Shown piece after piece: positions 7,629 to 10,006 of a stretch of 64,000 nt of DNA. Source of the stretch: Eledone cirrhosa (lineage: Eukaryota); assembly GCA_964016885.1 (NCBI GenBank), contig OZ024743.1, forward strand, positions 274,660,001-274,724,000, given 5' to 3'. Under the pieces are notes generated by a model. The model was given only the letters and a program-made list of their open reading frames with translations, did not search any database and was not told where the DNA came from. How positions within the stretch are numbered: the stretch's first letter is position 1; the number at the start of each line of letters is the position of its first letter. Both the position numbers and the translations under genes were made by a program.

Positions 7629-9734
7629 TATTTTATAAACATTTGAATTAGCAGACCAGATTTTAAATATTTTCTGCTAGATCATTACAGAATGTCAAGA
7701 GTTAAATAGAAAGAAAGAATGCAAGTTAGCAATGGAAGTTATTGGGAAAATGTCAAATTTTAAGTCTCGAAGTAAAGTTACATGCTTGATAGATGAGTTC
7801 GATTAATGAGAGTGACATAAACAAGCGCAAATATTTCCATGAAGTCGCTATATAATGCACGTGAAATTATGTACACAGAAAATATAAATATATACAAGAA
7901 CGAAGTGTGTGTGTGCGTGTGTGTGTGTGTGTGTGTGTGTGTTTTGAAATGTGCGTATGGGCATTTGTATATTTGGTTAGTGTATGAGCGGATGTGTGAG
8001 AAATATTTCTGTAAAATGTGTGTATGTGAATCAGTTTACTATGTGTGGATGTTTGTGAGTGTGTATGTATATGTATGTGTGTTTATTGTGTGTGTGAGTG
8101 TCAGAACCTGGAGAATGAGAGTGTATATGTGAGTATGTGTATCATACACAGTTCACTGTGTGTGGATTTTTGTGAGTATGTATGTATGTATTTATTGTGT
8201 GTGGGTGTGTGACAGAGCGGGGAGGATGAGCGTGTATATGTGTGCATGCACAGTTAATCTTGATATAAATTAAATGTGTGTACAGTCACACAACTAAATA
8301 TACTGAAGAAATTCTACACATTGAGATCTTAAAGTTTCATGTGTTACACACTCAATAATCCGTGGTGGAAGAGAGTTCTTATAGTCATACATATTAAATT
8401 TACCAATACAAATCAATAAAGAAATATGCAGGCATGTGTATGTATGTATGTATGTATGTATGTATGTATGTATGTATGTATGTATGTATGTTTGTATATA
8501 TGTATATATGAATGTATGTATGCATGCATGTATGTGTGTGTGTATGTATGCGTATATGTGTGCATGGGTGTGTATGTATGTATGTATGTATGCGCGGGAA
8601 TATGAAATATTCGGTTTGGTGCCAGGTGCGTGGTTAGAGGCCCCTGATCTCATAGGACATCATCCTATGAGAAAGAAAACTGATGTAAAACCCCCGACTC
8701 AGTGGCAGCCATTGATGTTAAACTGTTCTTCTTTTTCGATACCTATCCCCAGCCAGTACAAGGCTTTCCTTCACTTAAAAAAGCTTCAAGTTCATGCATC
8801 ACTTGGTCTAAATGTCTTACACGCTTGTTGCATGAGCATGCCTGACCATAGCTGAAAAGGGCCTTTTATTTTTGCTACAGAATATGTTGCAAGAAAGTGC
8901 TTGGTAGGGCTAGAAAGTCTTGTTCGTGCCAGCCATGTCTGTGAAAATGATCAAGTGATGGCAATTCTCGAAATAGAGATGCAGCCATTATGTGTGTATG
9001 TATGTACGTACGTAGGAATATGTATGTATGTATGTAAGAATATGTATGTGTGTATGTATGCATGTAAGTATGTATGCATGTAAGAATATGTAACTATATA
9101 TGTATGTATGCATGCATGTATATATGTATGTATGCATATATGTATTATGCCTGAATGTATGTATGTACGTATGTATGTACGTGTATGCATGTATATAAGT
9201 AAGAATGTATATATACCTGTATAATTCAATGTACATGTGTATACATGTAGCCGTGTGTAAGTATGTTTGGATATTTACATATATGTGCTTTTTAGGCTAA
9301 TGAAAAATATTGGCGCCAAGAAAGGTTTCTCCCATAAAAGAATTCATCCAAAAGTGTTCCCTAAAATGATGTCCAAAGGCGGACATAAAATATTGATAAG
9401 GAGGTGCAGACGGATATATATGTATAAGTCTGTGTGTGATTCTGTGTGTGTGTGGAATGCTCATAAGTCTTTAGGACATCTGTACGAGTAAACATATATA
9501 TATATATATATATATATATATATATATATATATATATATATATATATATATATATATATATATATATATATATATATATATATATTAGAAAGTGAGGTTT
9601 TTTTTACAAAATGAAAAATAACCGAGGTGTCCTACACGAGTGAAAGTATAAAGAAAAAGAGATGAAATCGAAAATGTAACTGGAGTCTTATTTTTTTTTT
9701 TTTTTTTTAAATTTATATATTTATTTGGTTCCTT

Positions 9735-9841
9735 AAAAATATGGAACGCTTCACGAATTTGCGTGTCATCCTTGCGCATGGGCCATGCTAATCTTCTCTG
9801 TATCGTTCCAATTTTAGAATATGTACTGCCGTAACTAGTAC
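9735..9841 (-). ncRNA. U6: Full-length (107 nt) U6 snRNA retrocopy, probably a pseudogene
   Basis: Minus strand reads GTACTAGTTACGGCAGTACATATTCTAAAATTGGAACGATACAGAGAAGATTAGCATGGCCCATGCGCAAGGATGACACGCAAATTCGTGAAGCGTTCCATATTTTT, with the ACAGAGA box, ISL and 5' stem. Its upstream flank is an inverted U6 fragment, not a promoter. Confidence 0.95.
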
Positions 9842-9844
9842 GTA

Positions 9845-9885
9845 GCAAGGATGACACGCAAATTCGTGAAGCGTTCCATATTTTT
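9845..9885 (+). ncRNA. U6: Inverted 3' fragment of U6 snRNA
   Basis: gcaaggatgacacgcaaattcgtgaagcgttccatattttt; reverse complement of 9735-9775. Confidence 0.93.
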
Positions 9886-10006
9886 AAGGAACCAAATAAA
9901 TATATATATTTTTTTAAAAAATAAGACTCCAGTTGCATTTTCGATTTCATCTCTTTTTCTTTATATATATATATATATATATATATATATATATATATAT
10001 ATATAT

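Follow-up and report, generated by a model that had tools for sequence, protein, structure and literature searches.

How did a U6 snRNA come to be joined, to the nucleotide, to the point at which a hammerhead ribozyme is predicted to cut the RNA of a retroelement? The locus that raises this question lies in a window of 64,000 nucleotides from Eledone cirrhosa, the window being the whole stretch of DNA that was analysed. We followed it up in the 3.0-Gb assembly of the genome, in which loci are named L001 and so on, and contigs C4, C19 and so on; the window is C4:274660001-274724000.

An unequal inverted U6 pair in a (TA)n tract

The locus is an inverted pair of arms inserted in (TA)n, as the original prediction had stated, with tracts of the target on the left (9494..9585) and on the right (9962..10009; no strand is assigned to either). 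The minus-strand arm consists of the 3' tail of family C, as we call the Penelope-like family whose 3' tail joins U6 in the window, and of a full-length U6 copy. The tail runs from the predicted cut to a 'long' end, where its own ATATATA meets the target (9586..9734), and the U6 comprises positions 1-107 with five terminal T (9735..9841). Three bases, GTA, mark the inversion point (9842..9844, plus strand) and, together with the 5' end of U6, make up a palindrome of 6 bases. They are followed on the plus strand by a partial U6, which holds positions 67-107 only and also ends in five T (9845..9885), and by the same tail, from the predicted cut to a 'short' end at an internal TATA (9886..9961). 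The pair was originally read as a palindrome with a full-length U6 in each arm. The arms are indeed inverted and the minus-strand U6 is complete, but the pair is unequal, with tails of 149 nt (minus) and 76 nt (plus), and the plus-strand U6 is the partial copy behind GTA. A sequencing fold-back artefact was disfavoured because the arms are unlike in length and sequence (the locus is known from the assembly).

The minus-strand U6 matched RF00026 with 111.6 bits and was the window's sole Rfam match at the gathering score; no hammerhead reached that score in the window. This U6 is of the type found in the C19 tandem array and stands without a U6 promoter upstream. In both arms CCATATTTTT is followed by AAGGAACCAAATAAA, with junctions at 9735/9734 and 9885/9886, and the five T abut AAGGAACC directly, with zero extra and zero shared bases between U6 and tail. 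Two siblings without U6, at 10085-10094 (minus) and 35471-35480 (plus), read GAAACCGGTA followed by AAGG. Since they show the native sequence across the predicted GUA cut, U6 stands for everything 5' of the cut, and the junction lies at the very nucleotide that had been proposed. The siblings have the sequence claimed for them, but neither is a best copy of the ribozyme: the first core strand is missing from the copy at 10085, and helix I of the one at 35451 has 3 pairs, against 4 in the commoner subfamily. The former belongs to a separate inverted insertion of family C without U6 (10010..10224, no strand assigned; partial ribozyme at 10085-10117).

The carrier family and its predicted hammerhead

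Exact matches of a 21-mer spanning the cut bond gave at least 14,580 copies of family C, which is young. A GIY-YIG fragment upstream in L010 led to many open frames of 775 aa, and in all six full-length copies (L331-L336) this frame combines a reverse transcriptase (RT) with a C-terminal GIY-YIG domain (Pfam RVT_1, E 1.3e-6, 28.7 bits, just below the cut-off of 29.6; Pfam GIY-YIG, E 4.4e-6, above cut-off). The frame bears out the PLE-type (Penelope-like element) carrier that had been postulated. Five of the six copies also have an ORF of ~400 aa, which in L332 (1788-3017) lies ahead of the RT frame, overlaps it in another frame, and gave no Pfam match. The hammerhead motif lies 3' of the ORFs in six of six full-length copies; ribozyme and tail occur 5' of them as well in three, forming pLTR-like partial tandems. 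An inverted copy is present in three of the six, and many inverted pairs were seen among the family loci. By its anatomy, that is, its domains, pLTRs and inverted 5'-truncated copies, family C is an EN+ Penelope-like element. Each insertion stops at one or the other of two places in the tail, an ATATATA or a TATA of the element that abuts the target; because native sequence continues beyond both places, the RT likely primes internally.

As judged from its predicted pairing, the family C motif is a minimal type I hammerhead with a U3-A8 core. It consists of helix I CCUU/AAGG (in the commoner subfamily), the core UUGAAAA, helix II GCAG/CUGC, GAAA, CCGG and UA; a CUGANGA core was rejected, as UUGAAAA takes its place. 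The sibling with a whole minimal hammerhead occupies 35401..35624 on the plus strand, with the core UUGAAAA at 35451-35457, helix II at 35458-35470, and GAAA-CCGG-UA at 35471-35480, the predicted cut falling after 35480. Applied to 154,690 bases that had been selected on other grounds, a hammerhead descriptor found 16 sites, compared with 0-5 in 10 shuffles. The U3-A8 core is a described variant of PLE hammerheads (Cervera and de la Pena 2014, PMC4209133), and in the available text of the same paper PLE minimal hammerheads cleave weakly and in a dimer-dependent manner in vitro. The weak activity in vitro favors an explanation in which the motif no longer cuts, and U6 is added where the RT stalls or a host nuclease acts at the structure. 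So does our folding, in which the stability of the monomer did not exceed that of shuffled sequences (z -0.8 and -0.2) and two copies did not produce a clean double hammerhead.

A second hammerhead family lies just upstream of the sibling in the window (35275-35335). It has a CUGGUGA-variant core, a stable helix III and a predicted cut after 35323, and its relatives elsewhere bear U6 and 18S at the cut. At L403 (C28:30.50-30.56 Mb) a hammerhead-bearing unit forms a retrozyme-like tandem array with 13 matches. At L236/L237, L243 and L323 the first 20-25 nt past the cut are duplicated, and the second copy begins exactly at the cut.

U6 3' ends across the genome

A search of the assembly for U6 3' ends with one mismatch allowed gave 177 matches, of which 100 were listed, and to these were added all 87 with a T run of five or less; for contigs after C19 the coverage is of T runs up to 5. 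After 26 array loci, two duplicates of the window and 8 loci failing a U6 context filter were dropped, 113 arms in 105 loci were kept among the matches listed. Partner classes were assigned by eye with the help of BLAST; in an Rfam E-value scan of ten loci, matches to TA repeats swamped the output.

Among the matches listed, U6 was joined to a hammerhead family with known parent sequence in 17 of the 105 loci, and to a probable one, with the parent missing or diverged, in 6. The 3' tail of an RT-encoding LINE was the commonest partner (34 loci). At 12 loci U6 met scattered points of another repeat, which we take to be LINE-like, and at 20 it lay at or within repeats that are presumably tRNA-SINE-like. 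The rest were 3 gene loci and 13 without partner or assignment. We looked for the parents of the 6 probable and 13 unassigned partners and found none, and these 19 loci could conceal U6 joints away from a cut.

The 17 hammerhead-family loci represent seven ribozyme groups: family C (the window, L002, L005 and L008), two related U3-A8 groups (L078, L118, L137 and L169; L147), and four groups with a canonical core (L081 and L104; L052, L109 and L135; L070 and L076; L117). The groups differ in their cores and in their cut triplets (GUA, GUC, AUA). The predicted cut and the U6 joint coincided in 16 of the 17 loci; L076 has one extra C at the joint, and L137 is joined at the cut with the first base changed. 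Recurrence of the junction had been anticipated both within the family and beyond it, and was found in both: four separate family C loci share the exact joint, and in 13 more loci U6 lies where ribozymes of other hammerhead families are predicted to cut. Junctions scattered along the tail were also looked for, and in recognised hammerhead families no U6 joint away from the cut was found, the full length being known for family C only. Because the joints track hammerhead numbering in seven groups, cleavage in vivo is likely. Addition at a stall or nuclease site would have to place the joint on the scissile bond in seven groups of differing surrounding sequence, and nothing would make a stalling RT or a nuclease keep to the numbering of a hammerhead. 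We therefore consider that explanation very unlikely.

The U6 ends also differed between partners. Exactly five bases separate CCATA from the partner in 15 of 17 hammerhead-family loci, as against 6 of 33 LINE-tail loci (Fisher p 2e-6), several of the 33 having been corrected by hand where the anchor of the script failed. In the list not selected on T length, the five-base end was found in 10 of 11 and 4 of 26 loci, respectively (p 3e-5). Joints of U6 with the LINE tail had T runs of 3-19, and about half of them contained extra bases.

The U6 genes that we found on C5, on C9 and in the tandem array of C19 are preceded by TATA boxes, end in T runs of 6-10 and continue into unrelated 3' sequence. 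The tail is therefore not the flank of a U6 gene, a possibility raised at the outset. The C19 array (L041-L068, C19:31.78-31.84 Mb) contains ~32 U6 genes in tandem, with a period of ~1.8 kb and a 5' stem variant.

The identical junction of the four family C loci could also be explained by one old fusion that gave rise to a spreading U6-headed SINE, or by insertion of the tail behind U6 genes. Yet the same kind of joint is found in seven ribozyme groups, and the four loci differ in tail variant and in the 5' extent of U6 and have no flank in common. The genes bear an upstream TATA box and other 3' flanks, whereas the chimeras lie in (TA)n without a TATA box, and U6 promoters are mostly upstream of the gene (PMC5855946). 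Amplification of an snRNA-headed SINE is not what the counts describe either: U6 heads 4 loci in a family of at least 14,580 copies, and these loci share neither flanks nor truncations. An old fusion is thus hardly credible, and the birth of a U6-headed SINE, part of the original prediction, had to be given up.

Other U6 loci were set aside or noted in their own right. L001 and L007 turned out to be something other than U6, and at L006 U6 sits on the LINE tail. The readings of the commonest U6 partner as a U6-headed SINE or a ribozyme were rejected, since the sequence proved to be a LINE 3' end (4,232 matches). This LINE tail has a strong truncation hot spot ~60 nt from its end in about half of 30 copies (L189-L218). 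Three U6 chimeras (L053, L107 and L132) have one common junction in a LINE-like repeat, either a defined RNA end or a single source copy. At L093, L164, L170, L183 and L187, one of them an inverted pair, U6 runs straight into (TA)n, and these copies look as if primed on U6's own AUAU.

Other RNAs at the cut

A base other than the native A preceded the cut in 239 family C matches, and a non-native base preceded the next position in 193. Inspection of the first 30 of each showed true joints in 14 of 30 at the cut versus 5 of 30 one base downstream, the rest being point changes; this is an excess at the cut of about threefold (interval 1.5-8). Most joints at the family C cut lead to the element's own inverted arm or to the target.

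rRNA was found at predicted cuts as two 18S and two 28S fragments, all in the sense strand and with C or U as the 3' base. None of the four joints has an extra base; in three, donor and tail have no base in common, and the fourth is ambiguous by one base. Among 98 family C arms there were one 18S fragment (L247) and one 28S fragment (L327). One and the same 28S nucleotide is joined to the cuts of two different families (L327/L342 and L347), and of the 11 places examined among the 20 that have the 28S 22-mer, nine run on in 28S, and the remaining two lead into ribozyme cuts. The second 18S fragment lies at the cut of a third family (L379). A survey of cut sites of the second family gave one rRNA donor in ~40 loci, inverted arms overlapping helix I being dominant. 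Six family C donors matched no identified RNA, and by eye no end of a tRNA, 5S or another snRNA was recognised at the cut in the 98 family arms and ~40 second-family loci. Where both arms reach the cut, the same donor junction is present on both in six of six loci (the window, L008, L081, L169, L327 and L379). In the literature covered we found no paper reporting a cyclic phosphate at the 28S L1 stalk.

Five dispersed 28S pieces (L337-L341) start at one point, which we take to be the R2 target site, just past unrelated structured sequence; they are possibly R2-like 3' ends with rRNA read-through. L343 (448-3319) contains an 18S gene of ~2.9 kb with GC-rich expansions.

How the joints may have been made

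The joints were probably produced by ribozyme cleavage in vivo, RtcB-type ligation of an RNA with a cyclic phosphate, and copying of the chimera into (TA)n by the element's RT. The hammerhead would cleave the element RNA, probably as a dimer formed through the ACCGGU palindrome, and leave a 5'-OH. To the new 5' end a host RtcB-type ligase would then attach an RNA bearing a 2',3'-cyclic phosphate, which could be mature U6 or a piece of broken rRNA. Using the nicked target, the element's RT would prime at an internal ATATATA or TATA of the RNA. Its template may have been either the long RNA, cleaved at the upstream ribozyme, or the short piece downstream. Priming from each side, or priming once with fold-back copying, would yield the unequal inverted pair. 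The chimeras would be by-products of a ligation that could circularise the element's own RNA. Moldovan et al. 2019 (PMC6789731) showed that U6>p and 5'-OH RNA are joined with precision by RtcB, and RtcB also circularises hammerhead-cut retrozyme RNA in vitro (PMC7229834). Human U6 mostly ends in five U with a cyclic phosphate, and some animals are without USB1 (PMC5855946). We favor ligation because the five-T joints are clean, the donors are of a type expected to carry a cyclic phosphate, and the donor is common to both arms in six of six loci. Against ligation counts the fact that nascent U6, too, can end in few U.

Alternatively, the ribozyme cuts, and the RT copies the tail up to the new 5' end and jumps, with no ligation, onto the 3' end of U6 or rRNA. 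The cut site is a hot spot of truncation and of inversion joints, so the RT reaches a free end there and could jump. U6 also occurs at LINE truncation points, at the heads of tRNA-SINEs and alone in (TA)n, and hence it reaches these RTs without a ribozyme. At L078 a 4-base stretch is shared by the 5' part of U6 and another family, an indication that switching does occur in these insertions. The available text of PMC12140624 also suggests that an engineered R2 RT can take up RNAs whose ends bear 3' or cyclic phosphates. On the other hand, jumping does not readily explain why extra bases are nearly absent and why the end is fixed at five T, unlike in the LINE joints of the same genome, although that control uses another RT, whose ragged joints need not predict the behaviour of the element's. 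Jumping also leaves it to be explained why no tRNA, 5S or other snRNA end was recognised by eye at the cut, and in each of the six donor-sharing pairs it would require two rare jumps, unless one arm was copied from the other by fold-back. Such fold-back could indeed account for the second arm. On balance we regard jumping as unlikely, though far from negligible. Cleavage in vivo, which is likely from the position of the joints, is required by ligation and by template jumping alike.

A broader proposal is that PLE hammerheads make ligatable ends (5'-OH and cyclic phosphate) in vivo, that the host tRNA ligase normally circularises the element RNA, that the RT primes internally on (TA)n, and that captured U6 and rRNA are the genomic record of this cycle. 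We offer it tentatively, at somewhat less than even chances.

Relation to known systems

The chimeras resemble the U6/L1 chimeras (PMC6789731) in that a U6 with about five T is joined in sense, by a precise joint, to the 3' part of a retroelement and retroposed. They have the features of U6 chimeric retropseudogenes (4-6 T, a sense joint to a retroelement 3' part, no U6 promoter). The features strictly peculiar to U6/L1 (an L1 partner, poly(A) and an L1 target) are absent, the partner being a GIY-YIG element that ends in (TA)n. In the available text of that paper the U6/L1 joints are without a fixed site, scattered, with no specific sequence and no source of the 5'-OH known, whereas here they are fixed at a ribozyme cut. 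Also unlike U6/L1, the carrier is Penelope-like, the target is (TA)n, the arms are inverted, and rRNA fragments occur at the same site. Capture of U6 and rRNA at PLE hammerhead cuts likely extends the known U6/L1-type chimeras.

With the PLEs that have hammerheads (PMC4209133; Craig et al. 2021, PMC8557442) family C has in common the RT with a C-terminal GIY-YIG, a hammerhead in both pLTRs, the U3-A8 core, a palindromic helix III, inverted 5'-truncated copies and microsatellite targets. The separate ORF of ~400 aa ahead of the RT distinguishes the full-length copies from the PLEs of those papers. In the available text of both, no evidence of cleavage in vivo is given, the function of the ribozyme is called unclear, and capture of host RNA is not described. 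Animal retrozymes (PMC7229834; bioRxiv 10.64898/2026.07.22.740005) are similar in their hammerhead-cut ends joinable by RtcB and in their link to PLEs. They are, however, non-coding tandem repeats that close on themselves, while here a foreign RNA is at the cut end and the carrier is autonomous. SINEU, with heads derived from U1/U2, likewise has an snRNA head on a retroelement tail but is an amplified family (PMC4494074); the U6/tail loci are one-off retrocopies. In the literature we covered, which stops short of most subscription journals and supplements and includes the available text of PMC13247085 and PMC11838501, we found no paper on a U6/hammerhead/Penelope chimera. Repeat libraries may contain such chimeras unremarked.

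Significance

The foreign RNAs found on the scissile bond of seven groups provide evidence from the genome itself that cleavage takes place inside cells and that insertion makes use of the cleaved RNA; this conclusion is the same under both leading mechanisms. If ligation is the true mechanism, a natural origin is identified for the 5'-OH on which U6 chimeras depend, chimeras made by RtcB extend beyond mammalian L1, and the proposed circular intermediate is supported. If the reading that includes the circle is also true, genomes keep a nucleotide-exact record of the ribozymes that are active in the germline and of the host RNAs with cyclic-phosphate ends, including a recurring break in 28S. 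Any genome with many hammerhead-bearing Penelope-like elements can be screened for this signature of foreign RNA at the cut.
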